Of a DNA stretch of 64,000 nucleotides, positions 3,742-64,000 are shown in pieces. Each line of letters starts with the position of its first letter. The stretch's first letter is position 1. The translations under genes and the position numbers were made by a program. The notes under the pieces were generated by a model. It was not told where the DNA came from and ran no database searches. It saw only the letters and a list, made by a program, of their open reading frames with translations. The DNA is from Leptolyngbyaceae cyanobacterium (lineage in GTDB: Bacteria > Cyanobacteriota > Cyanobacteriia > Phormidesmidales > Phormidesmidaceae): contig CBDHHL010000032.1 of assembly GCA_965263355.1 (NCBI GenBank), positions 160,001-224,000 of the forward strand, in the 5' to 3' direction.

Positions 3742-5118
3742 ATGACCCTCGCCTCCACCCTTCAAAAACGCCGTCAGCAGCTAGCCCAGCAACTCGATAC
3801 CCCAGTGCTACTTTGGTCAGGCCAGGCCACACCCCGTAATTTTCCGGCGAACACCCACCCATTTCGGCCCAGCAGTCACTTTCTCTACTTCACTGGGCTG
3901 CCTTTGGAAAATGCGGCCATTTATATAGCCGATGGCCACCTTACCTTATTTATGGATGAAGCGACACCGGCTGAGGCGCTCTGGCACGGGCCTAGCCCAA
4001 CGCGGCAAGAACTGGCGCATAAAATTGGTGCTGGTGAGGCGCTACCGCTGGCAGACTTAAAACACTTTGTTAAGCATCAAGTGGCCACGCTCAAGGTGCA
4101 GGATAGTGCTACAGCAGCTCAACAGGAGCAGCTTTTGCAGCGTTCCATTTCGATTGCCAAACAAGCTCAGGAACAGGATCTGGCGTTGCTCCAGGCGATT
4201 GTGCGGTTACGCCTATGTCACGACGAGTATGCCCTGGGTGAAATTCGTCGGGCGGCTGGGGTGTCGGTAACTGCCCATAAGGCTGGCATGGCTGCAACTG
4301 CCTGGGGGCAAAACCTGACTGAGGCCCATATTCGTGCCGCCATGGAACAGGTGATTATGGCCCATGGTATGACCTGCGCTTACAACAGTATTGTTACAGT
4401 CCATGGTGAAGTGTTGCATAACCATCATTATCACCACCCTCTAGGAGAAAACGATCTGATTTTGGCGGATGTGGGGGCGGAAACTGAAACTGGCTGGGCG
4501 TCAGATATTACGCGTACCTGGCCAGTCAGCGGTAAATTTTCATCTACGCAGCGAGACCTTTACGATGTGGTTTTGGCGGCCCATGATGCTTGCATTGAGG
4601 CGGCTAAACCAGGATTGGAATACAAGGAGCTACATCTGCTGGCCTGTCGTACCCTGGCAGCCGGTTTGGTAGACCTGGGTATCCTTATCGGTCAGCCTGA
4701 TGATTTGGTAGAACAGGATGCCCATGCGTTGTTTTTTCCCCACGGCGTTGGTCATCTGTTGGGGTTAGATGTGCACGATATGGAGGATCTGGGGGATCTG
4801 GCGGGGTATGCTCCCGGTCGCAGCCGCAGCGAGCGATTTGGTCTCGGTTTTCTGCGTTTGGATCGGCCTTTGCAGACGGGTATGGTCGTCACTATCGAGC
4901 CTGGATTCTATCAGGTGCCGGGGATTTTAAAGGATCGGGAAAACTGCGATCGCTACGCCAACCTAGTCAACTGGGAGCGTCTCACCCAGTTTGCCGACGT
5001 GCGCGGCATCCGCATCGAAGATGATGTTTTAATTACGGACCAAGGATGTGAGGTGATTACCGCTGATTTACCCACAAACGCCAACGAAATTGAACAATTA
5101 GTAACCGGAAATAAGTAG
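3742..5118 (+). CDS. pepP: Xaa-Pro aminopeptidase (M24B)
   Basis: DVGAE..GWASDITRTWP, HGVGHLLGLDVHD, TIEPGFY and GIRIEDDVL metal-ligand motifs. Confidence 0.92.
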   Translation: MTLASTLQKRRQQLAQQLDTPVLLWSGQATPRNFPANTHPFRPSSHFLYFTGLPLENAAIYIADGHLTLFMDEATPAEALWHGPSPTRQELAHKIGAGEALPLADLKHFVKHQVATLKVQDSATAAQQEQLLQRSISIAKQAQEQDLALLQAIVRLRLCHDEYALGEIRRAAGVSVTAHKAGMAATAWGQNLTEAHIRAAMEQVIMAHGMTCAYNSIVTVHGEVLHNHHYHHPLGENDLILADVGAETETGWASDITRTWPVSGKFSSTQRDLYDVVLAAHDACIEAAKPGLEYKELHLLACRTLAAGLVDLGILIGQPDDLVEQDAHALFFPHGVGHLLGLDVHDMEDLGDLAGYAPGRSRSERFGLGFLRLDRPLQTGMVVTIEPGFYQVPGILKDRENCDRYANLVNWERLTQFADVRGIRIEDDVLITDQGCEVITADLPTNANEIEQLVTGNK

Positions 5119-27433: not shown

Positions 27434-27574
27434 GTCTGGAGCAAAACTTAACGTTAATATGTATAAGGTGACGAACACATAAGGCTGTGGCAGTGGTTCA
27501 AAAACTGCTTTATGGCTATATCAGGGTAGCGCTGAATTTTATAGATAACAACTATACAAAAACGGTATATTCTT

Positions 27575-56914: not shown

Positions 56915-57012
56915 TGGGCGTCACGGGGACATTTTTAATGGACAACCGTAGGGGCATTGCATGCAATGCCCCTACGGTCGATACGTTGATCGATTATCAA
57001 TACCGGTGAGAG

Positions 57013-58330: not shown

Positions 58331-58473
58331 ACCCATTTGACAACTGAATAAGTCAGCAGGGACTGCTTTGAGCATTACGGTGTGAGGAGCAGTCTCTACT
58401 TTTATGGAAAATTATGGAAAACTGAAAAAGTTGATGGAATTCTCTCTTTAGTTCATCAATATATCCCAACTCT

Positions 58474-58713
58474 AAAAAAAGCCTCCACCGTAATGGCGGA
58501 GGCTATAGAGGGTGAGAGAGAACCGCTTGAAAGCGAGTTGGGACGGCGAAAGGCAATAACGGCTTACCTCTGGCGCTGTTGGAACGAATACTTGCTGTTT
58601 CCGCTAGGAGTTCACGCTAAAAGCTTGGCCTTGTAAACACGTTTGCCGTCAGGGTAGCTACGACAAAGATTTACGGAAACTTAGTTTCTCCCCTCCCGAC
58701 ATGTTTGAGCCAC
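58474..58713 (-). ncRNA. Candidate ~240-nt structured ncRNA
   Basis: -10 TATAGT at 58725-58720; internal stems gtaaat/gtttac and ttgtcgt/acggcaa; terminator gcctccgcc-attac-ggtggaggc-T7; no credible ORF on this strand. Confidence 0.55.
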
Positions 58714-58722
58714 CTATTAACT

Positions 58723-58742
58723 ATACTACTAAATAGTTATAT
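58723..58742. promoter_or_regulatory. Putative ArsR operator 1
   Basis: ATACTACTA-AA-TAGTTATAT. Confidence 0.6.
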
Positions 58743-58830
58743 AATGCTATATATAGAATAAAATCTATGAATCCTCTCCGAAGATTGCTTTCTTGCTAGG
58801 CAATTAAAAACAAGAGACTGCTGGTATATC

Positions 58831-58850
58831 ATATTACTATATGGTCATAT
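58831..58850. promoter_or_regulatory. Putative ArsR operator 2
   Basis: ATATTACTA-TA-TGGTCATAT. Confidence 0.65.
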
Positions 58851-58936
58851 GTCGGGTAATAAGATTACTGGTAAAAGACCTGTCTACGTCAGATGGCGAT
58901 CTTTATTGACTGGCAGTTTACCTAACTCAAAACCAC

Positions 58937-58992
58937 TGAAACAAGCGGAGTTATGATTGATGTATGAAACAAGCGGAGTTATGATTGATGTA
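58937..58992. repeat. Exact 28-bp tandem duplication covering the RBS and start of the DUF302 gene
   Basis: tgaaacaagcggagttatgattgatgta x2. Confidence 0.95.
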
Positions 58993-59395
58993 TCACTTTA
59001 GTAAGGTTGTCAATGTCTCATTTGATGAGGCCATCACCCAGGTAACCGAAGCACTGCGGGAAGAGGGATTGGGGATTTTAACCGAGATTGGTGTCCAATC
59101 GGCCTTCAAAAAGAAGCTAGATACTGATTTTCGCAAATACACGATTCTCGGAGCCTGCCATCCATTAGTGGCTTATCAAATGCTACAAACAGACGACAAG
59201 GCTGGGGTGTTCTATCCCTGTAATGTTGTGGTGCAAGCACATAACGATGGTCGGGTAGAAGTGTCAGCGATCGATCCGCTGATGATGTTTTTAATGATTC
59301 ATAGCCCTAAAGCAAAAGAGATTGCGCTGGACGCCAGTCAAAGAATGCAGGCGGCGATGGATCGTCTACCAGCAGCGACGCCAGTTGTCGCGTGA
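58988..59395 (+). CDS. DUF302 family protein
   Basis: GLGILTEI, YTILGACHP, PCNVVV and VSAIDP. Confidence 0.85.
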   Translation: MYHFSKVVNVSFDEAITQVTEALREEGLGILTEIGVQSAFKKKLDTDFRKYTILGACHPLVAYQMLQTDDKAGVFYPCNVVVQAHNDGRVEVSAIDPLMMFLMIHSPKAKEIALDASQRMQAAMDRLPAATPVVA

Positions 59396-59453
59396 CGTTC
59401 CGTTACGTTTTTGCTCACTCGTAAATCACATTCAAAATTTGGAGGAAAGACCC

Positions 59454-59672
59454 ATGTTTAACAATGTTGGAACTGTAGATCGATCACTTCGATTATTAGT
59501 GGCCAGTATATTGCTTTATTTGGGATTATTCACCTACGCGGGCTCATCGTTAGGAATTGGCATGGATATTGCTGGAGGTCTAGCACTGCTCACTGGGCTG
59601 GTTGGCTCCTGTGCCTTGTATGGTTTGCTCGGTATCAATACCCGCAAGAGAGATCACTCCTCTCAAGCTTAG
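59454..59672 (+). CDS. DUF2892 (YgaP-like) membrane protein
   Basis: NVGTVDR.LR and G.CALYGLLGINT; RBS ggagg. Confidence 0.88.
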   Translation: MFNNVGTVDRSLRLLVASILLYLGLFTYAGSSLGIGMDIAGGLALLTGLVGSCALYGLLGINTRKRDHSSQA

Positions 59673-59820
59673 GGCTTGACGACACGGTATAGGTGGGGAG
59701 ATACCAAAACAATTAAAGGACAATCACAACAACAGTTTTTCTGTCTTTTTCTCATTCTCCCCATGCATTTCATCTATCGATTACTGAATGTTTTTGAAAT
59801 AACTGAATTCGAATTGAATC

Positions 59821-60354
59821 ATGGAAAATGCGATTCCTTATGAGGTACCGTCCTTATCGCGACGGCAACTACTCAACTTTTTGACGGGGGCAACGGTTGC
59901 TGCAACCGCTGGTTCAGCCCTTTACCCAGTCGCTAAGTTTTTCATACCGCCTCGGGAAGTGTCTGAGGGAGGCGGAATTCTCGCAAAAGATAAACTGGGT
60001 AATCCGATTCCGGCCAGTCAACTCCTCGCTAATCCCCCTGGAACTCGTGCCTTGATTGCAGGACTGGCAGGCGAACCAACTTATTTAATCGTTCAAGACG
60101 ATGGCTCACTGGGGGCTAGAGGTATTGTCGATAACTGCACTCACTTGGGATGTACCTTCCCCTGGAATGCGAATGCCCAACAGTTTCAATGCCCATGCCA
60201 CGGATCGCTCTACGACCCGGAGGGTAATGTTGTTCGCGGGCCTGCGCCCCTCCCCCTCAAGATTGTTCATGTAGCGGTCAAGGATGATGCTGTCTGGATC
60301 TACCCCTGGAACGAGACTGACCCGCGTACTGGCGAACAACCCTGGTGGGTGTGA
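59821..60354 (+). CDS. petC: Cytochrome b6f Rieske iron-sulfur subunit, orphan paralogue
   Basis: Tat SRRQLL, CTHLGC, CPCHGS, GPAPLPL and DPRTGEQPWW; no petA downstream. Confidence 0.93.
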   Translation: MENAIPYEVPSLSRRQLLNFLTGATVAATAGSALYPVAKFFIPPREVSEGGGILAKDKLGNPIPASQLLANPPGTRALIAGLAGEPTYLIVQDDGSLGARGIVDNCTHLGCTFPWNANAQQFQCPCHGSLYDPEGNVVRGPAPLPLKIVHVAVKDDAVWIYPWNETDPRTGEQPWWV

Positions 60355-60375
60355 TGAACTGAGAGGTTTTTACGA

Positions 60376-60539
60376 ATGCGTATTATTTTGATGACTGAAA
60401 AAGGGGGAGTGTGTAAGACCTCGGTTGCGGCAACAACTGCCCTGCGAACAGCAGAACTGGGATATCGCACTCTGGTATTGAGTAGCGACCAGCCCATTTC
60501 TTGGCAGATAGCTTTGATCTGGAATTGGTGCATGATCCA
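60376..60539 (+). pseudogene. ArsA/GET3-family ATPase 5' remnant
   Basis: [16 protein letters not shown] (degenerate P-loop); after a frameshift reads [18 protein letters not shown], then truncated. Confidence 0.85.
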
Positions 60540-60642
60540 GCCCTTTCAAGGTGCTTTTTTGGACTTTCTTTTTTGGGCAAGTAAGCGAGCAGTGGAAACA
60601 TGTGGCTTATTTTTAGAAGGTTTTGGTACTGAACCAGTATAT
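60538..60642 (-). mobile_element. Transposase C-terminal remnant with end, IS4-like
   Basis: Minus frame [30 protein letters not shown] followed by aagggctg at the arsA junction. Confidence 0.5.
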
Positions 60643-60643
60643 T

Positions 60644-61029
60644 CCCGAGATTCACCATTCAGACCAAGGGGTGCAATACGCTGCTAATGCTTATGTTCAT
60701 CTGTTGGAGGAGAATGAGATAGCGATTAGCATGGCGGGTGTCGGCAAAGCCTATGAGAATGGCTTTGCTGAACGACTGATGAGAACAATTAAAGAAGAGA
60801 AGGTTGACTTATCGGACTATCGCAACTTTAATGAGGTGTATAACAGAATAGAAGAGTTTTTAGATGAGGTATATATGAAGAAGAGAATTCACTCTTCTTT
60901 GGGCTATTTGACACCGAGTGAATTTGAAACGAAGTGGAGGAAGAAAACCTGAAGTGTCTCAGATTGATACATGTCAGTCTAGACTTGCTGCAAACTAATT
61001 TTACTGTCCAAGATTAGGGGTTCACTTCA
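60644..61029 (+). mobile_element. IS3-family remnant (integrase C-terminal part plus right end)
   Basis: [25 protein letters not shown] and RIHSSLGYLTP; end ctgtccaagattaggggttcacttca. Confidence 0.85.
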
Positions 61030-61068
61030 CTTTCAGGTTATTGAAAGTTTTGGTCAACTACTTATGCG

Positions 61069-61419
61069 CTACGCGAACTCATCTATCAATTTTGATAGCC
61101 GCGCCATAGTTGCCTGAATCTCTTCGGGGGGGGGGTTATATTCCATCCCCATAGCCACTAGTAACAGGCCCAAATCAACAGCATCGTCAAGTTTTAAGAT
61201 TAAACCTAAGTCTTCAGTATTGTCTAGCACCTCTGGCTGAGGACTCGGATTTGTAACTTTAAAGTCCACATGTACCATGGATGGGTTTTCTTGCTCGTGT
61301 CCTGGAATCTCTTCAACCCGAGCGACCTTAGTACCCGTAACCGTAACACTGGCATGGTTGCTGATTACGGTAATCTCGCTAGTTGCTAAATCTTGAGTCA
61401 AAAGCTGTTGCGTTTTCAT
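61069..61419 (-). CDS. Hypothetical protein
   Basis: ORF from ATG 61419 (or 61476); contains a G10 tract at 61126-61135; preceded by operator 3. Confidence 0.65.
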   Translation of the reverse strand: MKTQQLLTQDLATSEITVISNHASVTVTGTKVARVEEIPGHEQENPSMVHVDFKVTNPSPQPEVLDNTEDLGLILKLDDAVDLGLLLVAMGMEYNPPPEEIQATMARLSKLIDEFA

Positions 61420-61477
61420 AGCTACCCTATATCCGTATCGACTGTCAGCTGCATGGGTCTTATCCTTAATTTTCATT

Positions 61478-61497
61478 ATATGGCCAATTAGTTATAT
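61478..61497. promoter_or_regulatory. Putative ArsR operator 3
   Basis: ATATGGCCA-AT-TAGTTATAT. Confidence 0.6.
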
Positions 61498-61549
61498 TAA
61501 GTATATTAACAACACATTTTTTAATGTCTTTACAGATATAGAGAGACAT

Positions 61550-62014
61550 CTAAAGTCTTTTATTAGAAATACTTACGGAAACTAGCTTAGCGGTCAGAGA
61601 GCCTGCGATAAAGGCACCTAGGAAGAGTACAGGACTCCATGATTTTAAGACCAGGGCGACAATAGCAGGGCCTGGGCAATAGCCAGCAATTCCCCAACCG
61701 ATACCAAAAACAGCTGCCCCCAATACTAGGGGCAGACCAACATCTTTGCGAGTTGGCAATCTAAATTTAGTGGCAAAGACGGGCTGGGGTAACTGCAACA
61801 CAAATCGGAATGCAATCACGGTCACCGTTACGGCACCACCTAGAACAAACAACAACGTAGGATCCCAACGTCCTGTGACATCTAGAAAGTCCAGCACCCG
61901 CCCTCGGTCAATCATTTGCGATAGACCTAAGCCCAGACCAAACAGTAGACCAGATGCGATCGTAACCAAGTTCTGTCCAACTTTTAGGGTGTTATGGCTG
62001 ATTACTTTATACAT
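61550..62014 (-). CDS. YeeE/YedE-family sulfur transporter, second half (DUF6691-like)
   Basis: GLLFGLGL..SQM, FLDVTGRWDPTL and FGIGWGIAGYCPGP. Confidence 0.85.
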   Translation of the reverse strand: MYKVISHNTLKVGQNLVTIASGLLFGLGLGLSQMIDRGRVLDFLDVTGRWDPTLLFVLGGAVTVTVIAFRFVLQLPQPVFATKFRLPTRKDVGLPLVLGAAVFGIGWGIAGYCPGPAIVALVLKSWSPVLFLGAFIAGSLTAKLVSVSISNKRL

Positions 62015-62019
62015 ATCTG

Positions 62020-62436
62020 TTATCCAATCATTCCATGGCGGGTAATCCAGACGGTGACCATGGCCGTTGCAAGAAATGTGAGCACCGCAATTAGCGATCG
62101 CAACGACAGTCGCCCCAGACCGCAAACCCCATGTCCACTAGTACAGCCATTACCCAACCGGGTGCCAAATCCGACCAGAAAGCCACCAAGAATCATTATG
62201 CCAGGGGCAAGCTCAGGTCGAGGCGTCGGCTGGGTAGCCAAACCATACTCATAGAGAACACCCCCCAGGAGCATGCCAGCTAGAAACAGCCAGCGCCAAA
62301 CCTCATTTCCCTGGATCGCGCCGTTAACAATGCCGCTAATCCCTGCAATCCGACCATTAAGCGCCAGCAGTAGTGTGGCACTAAGTCCGATCAACACGCC
62401 ACCAAAGAGTGCTGTTTCCCAGGTCAGTTCTGCCAT
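62020..62436 (-). CDS. YeeE/YedE-family sulfur transporter, first half
   Basis: GRIAGISGI and GFGTRLGNGCTSGHGVCG. Confidence 0.9.
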   Translation of the reverse strand: MAELTWETALFGGVLIGLSATLLLALNGRIAGISGIVNGAIQGNEVWRWLFLAGMLLGGVLYEYGLATQPTPRPELAPGIMILGGFLVGFGTRLGNGCTSGHGVCGLGRLSLRSLIAVLTFLATAMVTVWITRHGMIG

Positions 62437-62459
62437 AAAACTATTCCAGTAAAAACTAT

Positions 62460-62479
62460 ACATGATTGCTTGGCTATAT
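62460..62479. promoter_or_regulatory. Putative ArsR operator 4
   Basis: ACATGATTG-CT-TGGCTATAT. Confidence 0.45.
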
Positions 62480-62512
62480 AGTATTATAATCCCTTTAGGC
62501 TGTAACCGGTCA

Positions 62513-62815
62513 ATGAACCAGCAACCCTGGCAATTCAAGGAAACGATTCTGTCCCTGCAAACAGGTTGGTTAACTGTGATTGGAGAAAAGCTTAAAACAC
62601 CCCAGGGCAGGCTACTGGACTATTGGCGTGTTGAAAAAGCAGATTCAGTGATTGTGTTACCGATTCACCGGCAACAACTGCTACTGCCACCACCGGTCTA
62701 TCGCCCTGGCGTGGACCAAGCCACCTGGGACTTTCCCGGAGGGCGATGCCCTGAAGGTCAGAGCCTCCATACGGCTGCAACAACAATTCTCCAACGGGAA
62801 CTTGGGATTGTTCAC
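62513..62815 (+). pseudogene. 3'-truncated NUDIX hydrolase
   Basis: LDYWRVEKADSVIVLP, YRPG and DFPGGR..E.....A...LQRELGI, then runs into the arsR promoter. Confidence 0.7.
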
Positions 62816-62825
62816 TCTGCGCTAT

Positions 62826-62845
62826 ATTCAACTCTATGGTAATAT
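62826..62845. promoter_or_regulatory. Putative ArsR operator 5 (autoregulatory)
   Basis: ATTCAACTC-TA-TGGTAATAT upstream of arsR. Confidence 0.5.
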
Positions 62846-62905
62846 GGTAAATGACCTATAAGTTGTTCTAATCCTTCACAGCTTCTGTAAATTTCATTAT
62901 CGGCT

Positions 62906-63328
62906 ATGCCTGCTGTCAAAAAGTCTAGAAAGAAAGCATCCAAAACCTCAACGGCTACAGTTGACTCATCAGACTGTGGTGTCATGCAGCTTTCGCCAGA
63001 AGCACTGGCATTAATGGCCGATTTCTTTAAAGTTTTGTCTGAGGTGAGTCGGCTACAGATTGTATGCGCTTTGAAATCAGGTGACAAAAATGTGACAGAA
63101 ATTATTGAGATTACCGGGTTAGGACAGGCCAATGTGTCCAAACATCTCAAGATGCTGGCCCAAGCCGGGGTGGTCAGCCGTCGTCAGGAAGGTGTTTGTG
63201 TCTATTATCAAATCGCCAATCCATTTTTGTTTGAGCTTTGCGATCTGGTTTGTAATGCCCTATCCATTCAGATCGAACAGCAGTCACAGCAGTTTGAAGA
63301 ATTAGGTGCCATACGACAATCTCGTTAG
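62906..63328 (+). CDS. ArsR/SmtB-family regulator, BigR/SqrR-like
   Basis: FKVLSEVSRLQIVCAL, NVSKHL HTH and ELCDLVC; Cys in alpha2 and alpha5. Confidence 0.88.
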   Translation: MPAVKKSRKKASKTSTATVDSSDCGVMQLSPEALALMADFFKVLSEVSRLQIVCALKSGDKNVTEIIEITGLGQANVSKHLKMLAQAGVVSRRQEGVCVYYQIANPFLFELCDLVCNALSIQIEQQSQQFEELGAIRQSR

Positions 63329-63341
63329 GAGCTAGCGATCT

Positions 63342-64000
63342 CAGATGGGTGACAAGTTAACCCCATTGCTCGGTTGTCAAGAGGTGTCAGGCAGGGCATG
63401 GAAATAGGGGCTGAAGTCAAGTGTTTTAGGTGGTTTACGAATCGTCTTAATAACACTTAGGTCACGGTTTTCAGGAGCCGCTAAATACGCAACTGGGTCG
63501 GTTGCTAACCCATTATTATAGGCATGATTGAAATGGTAGAGACCCCGCCAGACCATTTTCATTGAGATGCGCTCAAGGGGCAATTGGACGGCCTCAGCGA
63601 CCGCATCCGACAAATCCACTAAGACCGCATACATGAGCCAGGTGGCCCAGATTTGCAACTTAATGCCATTGAGCGACCCGGTCCAGAGATAGGCTAACCC
63701 CAACAACCGCTTGACCAGGTGAAAGGCATCTTCAATTCTCCACCTGCGAGCATAGAGGTCAGCGACAACGTAAGGAGGCAATCGCTCCGGTTCTAAGACT
63801 GAGGTGAGATATCGATACCAGCCCTTGCCCTTTTTAATTTCAATCAGTCTCACCCGAAGAAGAGACTTTCCCTGGGCATCTTTGCCAATCTCAATCAATT
63901 GGTCTTTTAACCGGGGGGTGAGACTGAATGGCGCAATGACGGTATAGGTCAAATTGGATTTAGTGGCACAGATAAAATCAACCTGTTTGACCACCAACTG
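63342..64000 (-). mobile_element. IS4-family element; transposase 3' part runs off the window
   Basis: LYARRWRIEDAFHLVK (Y-2-R-3-E-6-K signature); end cagatgggtgacaagttaa at 63342. Confidence 0.88.

Follow-up and report, generated by a model that had tools for sequence, protein, structure and literature searches.

The closest described counterpart of the locus analyzed here is the suo locus (suoT-suoC/suoS-suoR) of Synechocystis sp. PCC 6803 pSYSM, where SuoR binds the suoC-suoS region and represses there (PMC4307280). The locus in question is an ArsR-containing island at 58,474–63,328 bp of a 64,000-nt stretch of a Leptolyngbyaceae cyanobacterium (contig CBDHHL010000032.1, positions 160,001–224,000; hereafter the window), which contains genes for DUF302 and DUF2892 proteins, an accessory cytochrome b6f Rieske protein (petC), a hypothetical protein, a YeeE/YedE pair and an ArsR-family regulator. 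Like the islands of relatives, the suo locus has a DUF302 gene divergent from a type I sqr; it also carries Tll0287-like and DUF3122 genes. SuoR belongs to the same ArsR clade as the window ArsR, and the same palindrome was found in the SuoR-bound region. However, in the window lineage DUF302 leads a DUF2892-petC set and not a ChrA-type suoT, and the window ArsR has Cys54 and Cys116, both of which are missing from SuoR in the pairwise alignment. In addition, the window ArsR has a predicted operator of its own, and relatives carry it together with SuoR-like paralogues. The suo layout, with sqr opposite DUF302 and suoR behind sqr, was not found in the window: sqr is absent and the ArsR is a paralogue, the SuoR-like genes forming a separate subclade.

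Accessory petC genes accompanied by DUF2892 and rhodanese genes are known from the low-oxygen psbA1-rhodanese-DUF2892-petC2 clusters (Synechocystis slr1181–slr1185 and Acaryochloris AM1_0449–0451), which are induced under microoxia (PMC5295598, PMC9958174). Loci with this gene order share a PetC clade with the window gene, and from gene order and clade, rather than from the named sequence, we infer that the window petC is orthologous to slr1185. In those clusters psbA1 is controlled by the MarR-type activator ChlR (PMC4500134), whereas here a predicted ArsR operator is common to sqr, pdo and yeeE. The BigR, SqrR, HlyU and YgaV sensors (cluster 4 of the ArsR network) resemble the window ArsR in the fold and in the position of the alpha2 cysteine, and their neighbourhoods likewise hold YeeE/YedE, DUF2892, rhodanese, TauE and metallo-beta-lactamase (MBL)-fold genes, but the window ArsR falls into a separate clade and has a different alpha4 motif and a different predicted operator.

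SuoR-repressed sqr and the low-oxygen induction of petC2 are already known. It was reported that arsR occurs near 27 cyanobacterial sqr genes and that microoxic psbA genes occur near sqr, which was noted as an open target, and that cyanobacterial sulfide-driven photosynthesis needs a few hours of induction (PMC5061849). In a 2026 review of cyanobacterial redox regulators, RexT is the sole ArsR protein named, and the words "sulfide" and "SuoR" are absent from the main text (PMC13421787). The literature search, which left subscription journals mostly uncovered and also took in parts of PMC8960804, PMC11304991 and PMC7042703, found no description of this operator or of ArsR control of petC2; the supplements or cluster logos of bioRxiv 10.64898/2026.05.15.721447 may already contain this clade. 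The sequences suggest, as a new element, that a non-BigR ArsR clade unites the SuoR-sqr and petC2 pieces through one operator. We propose, with a probability of about 0.58, that the SuoR-related ArsR represses the island via a 20-bp palindrome and that its release by sulfane sulfur turns on the sulfur genes together with the accessory petC.

Predicted operator and gene neighbourhoods

The operator was sought de novo by an expectation-maximization search in 70 non-redundant arsR upstream regions, which gave a log-likelihood of 474 against 35.5 for shuffled regions. The resulting palindrome, ATAYWAC-N6-GTWRTAT, was learned solely from the arsR promoters of relatives. With the window kept out of training, 61 distinct sites yielded the operator matrix, whose consensus is ATA(T/C)TAC(T/C)-N4-(A/G)GTA(A/G)TAT; the right arm of the palindrome merges into a TATAAT-like -10 element. 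Four sites of at least 14 bits were found in the 64-kb window, all within the island, against a mean of 0.2 per 64 kb in shuffled sequence. The best, predicted operator 1 (58,723–58,742; 22.4 bits), lies over the -10 element of a predicted rightward promoter and is identical in the close relative G001, and the second best, predicted operator 2 (58,831–58,850; 22.0 bits), follows at a spacing of 108 bp, which is the same in G001. The other two are located upstream of the hypothetical gene (61,478–61,497; 15.5 bits) and over the -10 element of arsR (62,826–62,845; 15.6 bits), the latter being a predicted autoregulatory operator found at the same position in relatives. A degenerate operator-like site upstream of yeeE (62,460–62,479) is within the background. 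The neighbouring ArsR repressor probably binds to this repeated palindrome.

Relatives of the ArsR were confirmed in 197 stretches, many of them short contigs, and all neighbourhood counts refer to the best 80 of these; the closest relatives (86–94% identity) are Leptolyngbyaceae-type cyanobacteria. The open reading frames (ORFs) of the 80 loci were clustered and representatives of the families were then named, the label pdo being assigned by inference to ETHE1-like MBL-fold genes. At least one sulfur-handling gene was found in 53 of the 80 loci and a petC of the window type in 11, which argues that the clustering is not due to chance. The families comprised pdo (25 loci), TauE (21), rhodanese (20), yeeE (17), yedE (15), two clades of SQR (16 and 12), DUF2892 (13), DUF302 (8) and Tll0287-like genes (3), and also acsF (8), cydA (7), hemN (6) and psbA (4); sqr or pdo was present in 41 loci. 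An extra tblastn match to petC (L001; 49%, inside a 519-aa ORF) was left out of the counts. In L004, L009, L019 and L061, petC-DUF2892-DUF302 is divergent from a type I-like sqr.

Upstream sites were counted at a threshold of at least 10 bits, within 300 bp and in regions of at least 150 bp, with the ArsR and petC locus sets pooled. They precede yeeE in 16 of 17 cases, DUF302 in 11 of 12, pdo in 23 of 28, type I-like sqr in 17 of 27, second-type sqr in 13 of 17, psbA in 11 of 19 and acsF in 5 of 11 (shuffled fractions 0–0.05), as well as ho (5/9) and cydA (1/10). No sites were found upstream of tauE (0/24), yedE (0/15) or housekeeping petC (0/21), and they were rare for rhodanese genes (3/57); the sites upstream of arsR itself (67/75) are the training set. 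Over 11 kb of Synechocystis pSYSM (L081), the only site (20.2 bits at 4948) is in the suoC-suoS intergenic region. The relatives G001 and G002 have 21 ArsR-family loci, of which both that hold this ArsR carry sites and a third has a single 11.9-bit site; no site of at least 9 bits was found at five YgaV-type loci. A site also precedes the sulfurtransferase-TauE-MBL operon beside a Rubrobacter ArsR homologue. Searched genome-wide in five genomes, the strict pattern gave three matches in two of them, at sqr, arsR and petC/sqr (control, 0). With one mismatch allowed, G001 had four sites, three of them within its island (control, 0), and additional sites precede cydA and a rhodanese gene. The common operator and the conserved neighbourhood support the shared ArsR regulon, covering accessory petC and sulfur genes, that an earlier note on this DNA had proposed.

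Two side observations concern the motif. In the Planktothrix-type loci L051, L054, L073, L079 and L080, ArsR lies beside acsF and a divergent ho-hemN(-hemJ) set, and operator sites are located in the promoter region between the two. Elsewhere in the window, four operator-like sites of 11–13.6 bits at 27,502, 31,826, 47,724 and 57,102 are found, respectively, at a GGDEF-EAL response regulator gene, inside an adenylate/guanylate cyclase gene, in a GHMP kinase-antiporter/NDH gap and at the 3' end of a nitroreductase gene; these are probably background.

The ArsR regulator and the accessory Rieske protein

The ArsR gene (62,906–63,328 bp, + strand) was identified by PF01022 and NF033788, and its product was attributed to the SuoR-related clade by phylogenetic trees. 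The protein carries RLQIVCAL in helix alpha2 (Cys54), ELCDLVC in alpha5 (a CxxxC of Cys112 and Cys116) and QANVSKHL in alpha4. Its AlphaFold2 model (predicted local distance difference test score 82) matched SqrR with a Z score of 13.8 and a root-mean-square deviation of 2.2 over 95 aligned residues; SmtB, CzrA, SqrR and HlyU all came within 1 Z unit, so that this comparison gives no resolution among ArsR subfamilies.

The earlier note had linked this regulator to the BigR/SqrR type on account of a cysteine pair in alpha2 and alpha5. Membership of that group was not supported: the BigR family model NF040642 scored 44.7 bits at a cut-off of 155. The alpha2 half of the pair stood, Cys54 aligning with Cys41 of SqrR, but the alpha5 cysteine of SqrR and HlyU (Cys107 in SqrR) is matched by Ser120 when sequences or structures are aligned without gaps, and the ArsR has its alpha5 cysteines 4 and 8 residues closer to the N terminus than the canonical position. 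No cysteine was found at position 120 in the subclade (0/77) or the wider family (0/138). MAFFT aligns the YgaV-type cysteine with Cys116 by opening a four-residue gap, and therefore a register-shifted BigR-like pair of Cys54 and Cys116 could exist. In the 77 subclade rows, Cys54 and Cys112 are invariant (77/77 each) and Cys116 is present in 70. In the wider family, represented by 149 sequences at 50% identity (the best 150, with one long row omitted), Cys112 was found in 136/141 and Cys116 in 130/139, compared with 22/147 for Cys54. By the usual geometry of ArsR dimers, Cys112 presumably lies near the dimer axis.

In the trees, the ArsR groups with SuoR, apart from YgaV-type proteins; the clade of SuoR and the representatives had supports of 100/97 in a 62-row tree and 99/95 in a 20-row tree. 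Joining with the YgaV type was rejected by the approximately unbiased (AU) test (p = 0.006), which examined the ArsR in a single clade together with YgaV and four plasmid-encoded YgaV-like proteins, in a tree of few columns that did not include SqrR and BigR. A grouping with metal sensors was not seen either: the ArsR stands apart from Escherichia coli ArsR and CadC/SmtB-like proteins, and its sequence has neither an alpha3 CxC nor an alpha5 Asp/His metal site. The pairwise alignment with SuoR showed 38% identity, with the QANVSKHL helix and Cys112 in common. Because SuoR shares this helix, paralogues may read the same operator. The best PDB sequence match of the ArsR was Rv0081.

The petC gene (59,821–60,354 bp, + strand) was classified as an accessory (PetC2-class) cytochrome b6f Rieske gene (NF045928, 298.8 bits; cut-off 250). 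Its product has an intact twin-arginine signal, a transmembrane (TM) anchor and both 2Fe-2S boxes (CxH and CxxH). Behind the second box it retains the Ser and Tyr that mark a high-potential Rieske protein, so it is likely a like-for-like substitute and not a low-potential variant. A survey of 301 genomes sampled across the phylum found a petC match in 135, with identities in two bands, 64–95% (38 genomes, all with two or more matches) and 49–56% (PetC1). The accessory clade was split from the petA-linked PetC1 clade in a quick tree (SH-like approximate likelihood ratio test, 100).

Loci of 41 accessory genes (37 genomes) and 19 control genes (petA-linked petC1) were fetched, and petA was nearby in 0/41 and 19/19 cases, respectively. 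Within about 8 kb, sqr was found at 13/41 accessory and 0/19 control loci and psbA at 12/41 and 1/19; rhodanese and DUF2892 genes accompanied 20 and 18 of the accessory genes. The operator was located no more than 1.2 kb upstream of 25/41 accessory petC genes versus 0/19 petC1 genes. Taking a match with E ≤ 1e-30 as presence of the ArsR, the site was found at 22 of 32 accessory loci in genomes with this regulator and at 3 of 9 in genomes without it. Type I-like sqr occurred in 22/38 genomes with accessory petC compared with 11/97 without (odds ratio 10.8, uncorrected for kinship and with plasmids possibly missing).

Several accessory loci differ in composition. In L112, L114, L115 and L117 (4/41), heterodisulfide-reductase-like sets (CCG-domain, FAD and 4Fe-4S proteins) adjoin sqr and accessory petC, and in L120 and L139 the accessory petC is fused to or preceded by an ORF of 400–440 aa (a 582-aa frame in L139). 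PCC 7002 pAQ7 (85,060–88,935; L082) carries sqr, an insertion sequence (IS) element of the IS4 family, a C-terminally truncated petC of the accessory clade and DUF2892, with a 10.2-bit site upstream.

All 16 psbA genes beside ArsR or accessory petC encode the D1' substitutions or close variants of them, and in three of the genes Mn ligands are missing as well; the D1'/rogue signature is of the G80A/F158L/T286A type. Rogue-type psbA without Mn ligands, with operator-like sites upstream, was seen in islands of close relatives (L101, L102 and L108), and L102 also has a D1'-type psbA. In L128, L132 and L136, which belong to genomes without this ArsR, a ChlR-like box lies about 225 bp upstream of psbA-rhodanese-DUF2892-petC, and no ArsR operator was found within 300 bp of psbA. 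This suggests two interchangeable regulators, ArsR and a ChlR-like protein, for one psbA-petC module.

Gene content and decay of the window copy

All the parts of the island named in the earlier note are present and intact at the coordinates given there. The DUF302 gene (58,988–59,395 bp, + strand; PF03625) encodes a homologue of SuoC (slr5037), with 65% identity to the pSYSM protein encoded next to sqr, and its Cys57 and Cys78 are invariant in 12/12 homologues. A 28-nt tandem duplication (58,937–58,992) covers the DUF302 ribosome-binding site; contigs of the sequencing runs X1–X3 (two samples of one study, which may include the source sample) carry a single copy, so it is an assembly artefact or a collapsed repeat. 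The next gene (59,454–59,672 bp, + strand; PF11127) encodes a YgaP-like TM protein, formerly DUF2892, with Cys53 invariant in 33/33 homologues. The YeeE/YedE pair consists of a YedE-like half transporter (61,550–62,014 bp, - strand; DUF6691, PF20398, E = 7e-38; start codon uncertain), with a cysteine conserved in 15/15, and a YeeE-like half transporter (62,020–62,436 bp, - strand; Sulf_transp, PF04143, E = 3e-8), with two cysteines that are both present in 17/17. By domains and conserved cysteine motifs, the pair belongs to the YeeE/YedE family of putative sulfur transporters. The earlier note had called it split; there are indeed two half-size genes, but the split is not recent, since relatives carry the same two-gene form.

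The hypothetical gene (61,069–61,419 bp, - strand) is present in 8/80 ArsR loci and encodes a conserved cyanobacterial protein of about 116 aa without cysteines; the start of a longer 135-aa ORF overlaps the -10 element. It had no match in the Pfam and NCBIfam searches, which did not assign it to a family, and its top Atlas match was an unnamed cyanobacterial cluster (0.92).

The absence of sqr and pdo from the 64-kb window was confirmed by tblastn. Counterparts of the window petC in G001, G002 and G005 (89–95% identity) are each divergent from sqr. The region at 58,717–58,849 has 87% identity to the sqr-petC intergenic region of G001 and represents a former divergent control region of sqr and (DUF302-DUF2892-)petC. 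It holds the predicted rightward promoter (58,717–58,745; TTAACT-17-TATAAT, 10/12 in a promoter scan, a consensus match only). The likeness to G001 begins only at 58,717, and the place where relatives have the start of sqr is occupied by a scar (58,527–58,714, + strand; 89% identical to G002:C55), in which a hypothetical gene of 263 aa, unrelated to sqr, has left its final codons and the sequence downstream of them. Since the promoter that faces sqr in relatives here faces the tail of an unrelated gene, sqr was lost from its usual position. An assembly artefact is improbable, as the junction is bridged by the X1–X3 contigs, which come from a single study and may include the source sample. The sqr of the source strain may lie elsewhere in the genome; type I-like sqr was present in 5/5 of the closest relatives tested, from which nothing certain follows for this strain.

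Two further genes are broken. Behind petC lies a 5' fragment of an arsA/GET3-type ATPase gene (60,376–60,539 bp, + strand; PF02374 on residues 1–38 only), which has 87% DNA identity to G001, an altered P-loop and a frameshift and stops at 60,539. A truncated NUDIX hydrolase gene (62,513–62,842 bp, + strand) shows 75% identity over residues 5–112 of a 193-aa relative, and run X4 carries 276 extra letters at 62,829/62,830. The IS scars described earlier were confirmed by profile matches to an IS3-family transposase remnant (60,540–61,020, + strand; NF033516/rve_3), which has loose ends, and an IS4-family one (63,344–64,000, - strand; NF033592/DDE_Tnp_1). Their depth in the X1–X3 contigs is mostly 3–4 times that of the flanks, so they are multi-copy. 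The window copy is thus a damaged, decayed island, with sqr gone and arsA and nudix broken. The four promoter palindromes, the broken arsA/GET3 and nudix genes and the scar of the unrelated gene had been overlooked in the earlier note.

Outside these features, a weak Cyano-1 RNA-like start (58,376–58,428, + strand; 20.2 bits, cut-off 41) was noted downstream of infC, and a short multi-copy repeat, at which many contigs stop, lies between the endonuclease V and nitroreductase genes (56,946–56,977). A small RNA ending at a terminator-like hairpin (58,480–58,504; fold z -2.5) was considered and rejected: the stretch is mostly the 3' end of a protein gene, and no Rfam match reached the gathering score (best weak match suhB, 31.8 vs 41 bits).

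Proposed regulation and its alternatives

Under the proposed scheme, an ArsR dimer would block RNA polymerase at each -10 element. Sulfane sulfur arising from sulfide oxidation by SQR would modify the ArsR cysteines, whereupon the repressor would leave the DNA. YeeE/YedE, DUF302 and DUF2892 (small Cys-containing carrier-like proteins) and PetC2 would then be made, and in intact relatives SQR, PDO and an alternative D1 as well. The accessory Rieske protein is predicted to replace PetC1 in cytochrome b6f, and the resulting PetC2-b6f would carry electrons from sulfide-reduced plastoquinol to photosystem I. In this scheme, the ArsR of the island, in place of or together with a paralogue sharing its helix, is presumed to bind the motif and repress; the alpha5 CxxxC (Cys112/Cys116), with Cys54 in this subclade, is the candidate sensor, and sulfane sulfur made by SQR is the putative signal. 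Sulfide or low oxygen would likely switch the sulfur-handling genes and petC on together.

A number of observations weigh against this proposal. The yeeE site of the window reaches just 7.1 bits, three sites of 13–13.6 bits lie in other parts of the window without sulfur context, and sqr is missing from its expected position. The one-mismatch motif is not enriched genome-wide in G064 (7 vs 9 in the control) and is near background in G172. No site was found at 16/41 accessory petC loci, a site up to 1.2 kb away may serve the divergent gene, and 9/38 genomes with accessory petC have no such ArsR. SuoR and other paralogues carry the same QANVSKHL helix. Only 13/41 accessory petC loci have sqr within about 8 kb, and psbA, acsF, hemN or ho is near 12/41, which makes low oxygen about as good a fit as sulfide. 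In the literature, genes of this petC class are induced by low oxygen (PMC5295598, PMC9958174). In PCC 7002, sqr fell rather than rose under high polysulfide (PMC12466478). Two observations from the same strain speak for the proposal: a petC of unspecified paralogy rose about 5.6-fold on polysulfide (PMC12466478), and the pAQ7 plasmid has sqr together with the truncated accessory-clade petC.

A more far-reaching reading, which is rather doubtful, is that the ArsR clade evolved separately as a class of reactive-sulfur or oxygen sensors based on the alpha5 CxxxC and that in many cyanobacteria it is the master switch by which oxygenic photosynthesis gives way to the sulfide-fed form. A single operator would then free SQR, PDO, sulfur transport, the swapped D1 and Rieske proteins and oxygen-independent pigment enzymes, and PetC2 would define a b6f form dedicated to sulfide-derived plastoquinol.

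Among the alternatives, the same regulon could be governed by an ArsR that responds directly to low oxygen or to thiol redox state, perhaps via a metal or Fe-S site that the two alpha5 CxxxC motifs would form close to the dimer axis; this ArsR would then be a repressor counterpart of ChlR. We consider this unlikely. The motif does precede D1'/rogue psbA, acsF-ho-hemN and cydA, the family-wide cysteines are Cys112 and Cys116 and not Cys54, and the three psbA-rhodanese-DUF2892-petC loci in ArsR-less genomes carry the presumed ChlR-like box. However, sulfur genes occur in 53/80 loci versus 31/80 for low-oxygen genes, and the Rubrobacter homologue lies beside only sulfurtransferase, TauE and MBL-fold genes. 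Rv0081 was placed in a hypoxia-linked cluster of the published network (PMC10054925), but it has no Cys at these positions.

It is improbable that a paralogue (a SuoR-like or psbA-adjacent ArsR) is the main reader of the motif, or that the window copy is too decayed to function and petC is a stranded relic. The shared recognition helix, the motif in the SuoR-bound region, the loss of sqr, the broken arsA and nudix, the two IS scars and the weak yeeE site would all fit. On the other hand, the motif lies over the promoter of arsR itself in 67/75 loci, albeit those of the training set, while petC, DUF302, DUF2892, yeeE, yedE and arsR are intact with their cysteines conserved, and operators 1 and 2 are conserved within a region otherwise 87% identical.

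There is a slim chance that the ArsR is an arsenite or metalloid sensor acting via its alpha5 cysteines, with the sulfur genes as co-regulated passengers. An arsA-type gene behind petC, Acr3-like SBF genes in 5/80 ArsR loci and the expression of suo genes during arsenite oxidation (PMC5061849) are in line with it, whereas the missing metal-site residues, the position in the trees apart from E. coli ArsR and CadC/SmtB-like paralogues and the absence of an arsC-like cluster among the families annotated near ArsR in the 80 loci are not. True membership in BigR/SqrR with a canonical alpha2-alpha5 tetrasulfide is very improbable: despite the Cys54 match, the gapped Cys116 alignment and the similar neighbourhoods, the profile score, Ser120, the AU test, the YgaV-type loci without sites and an operator unlike the sqr box ATTC-N8-GAAT (bioRxiv 10.64898/2026.05.15.721447) all argue against it.

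With a defined operator, a regulator clade and candidate sensor cysteines, the question of sulfide induction becomes testable. If the SuoR-related ArsR does control the island as proposed, this would provide a regulatory context for a poorly explained spare Rieske protein and might point to persulfide-sensor chemistry beyond BigR/SqrR. The island offers a lead, open to experiment, on the way in which cyanobacteria adapt their photosynthesis to sulfidic habitats.

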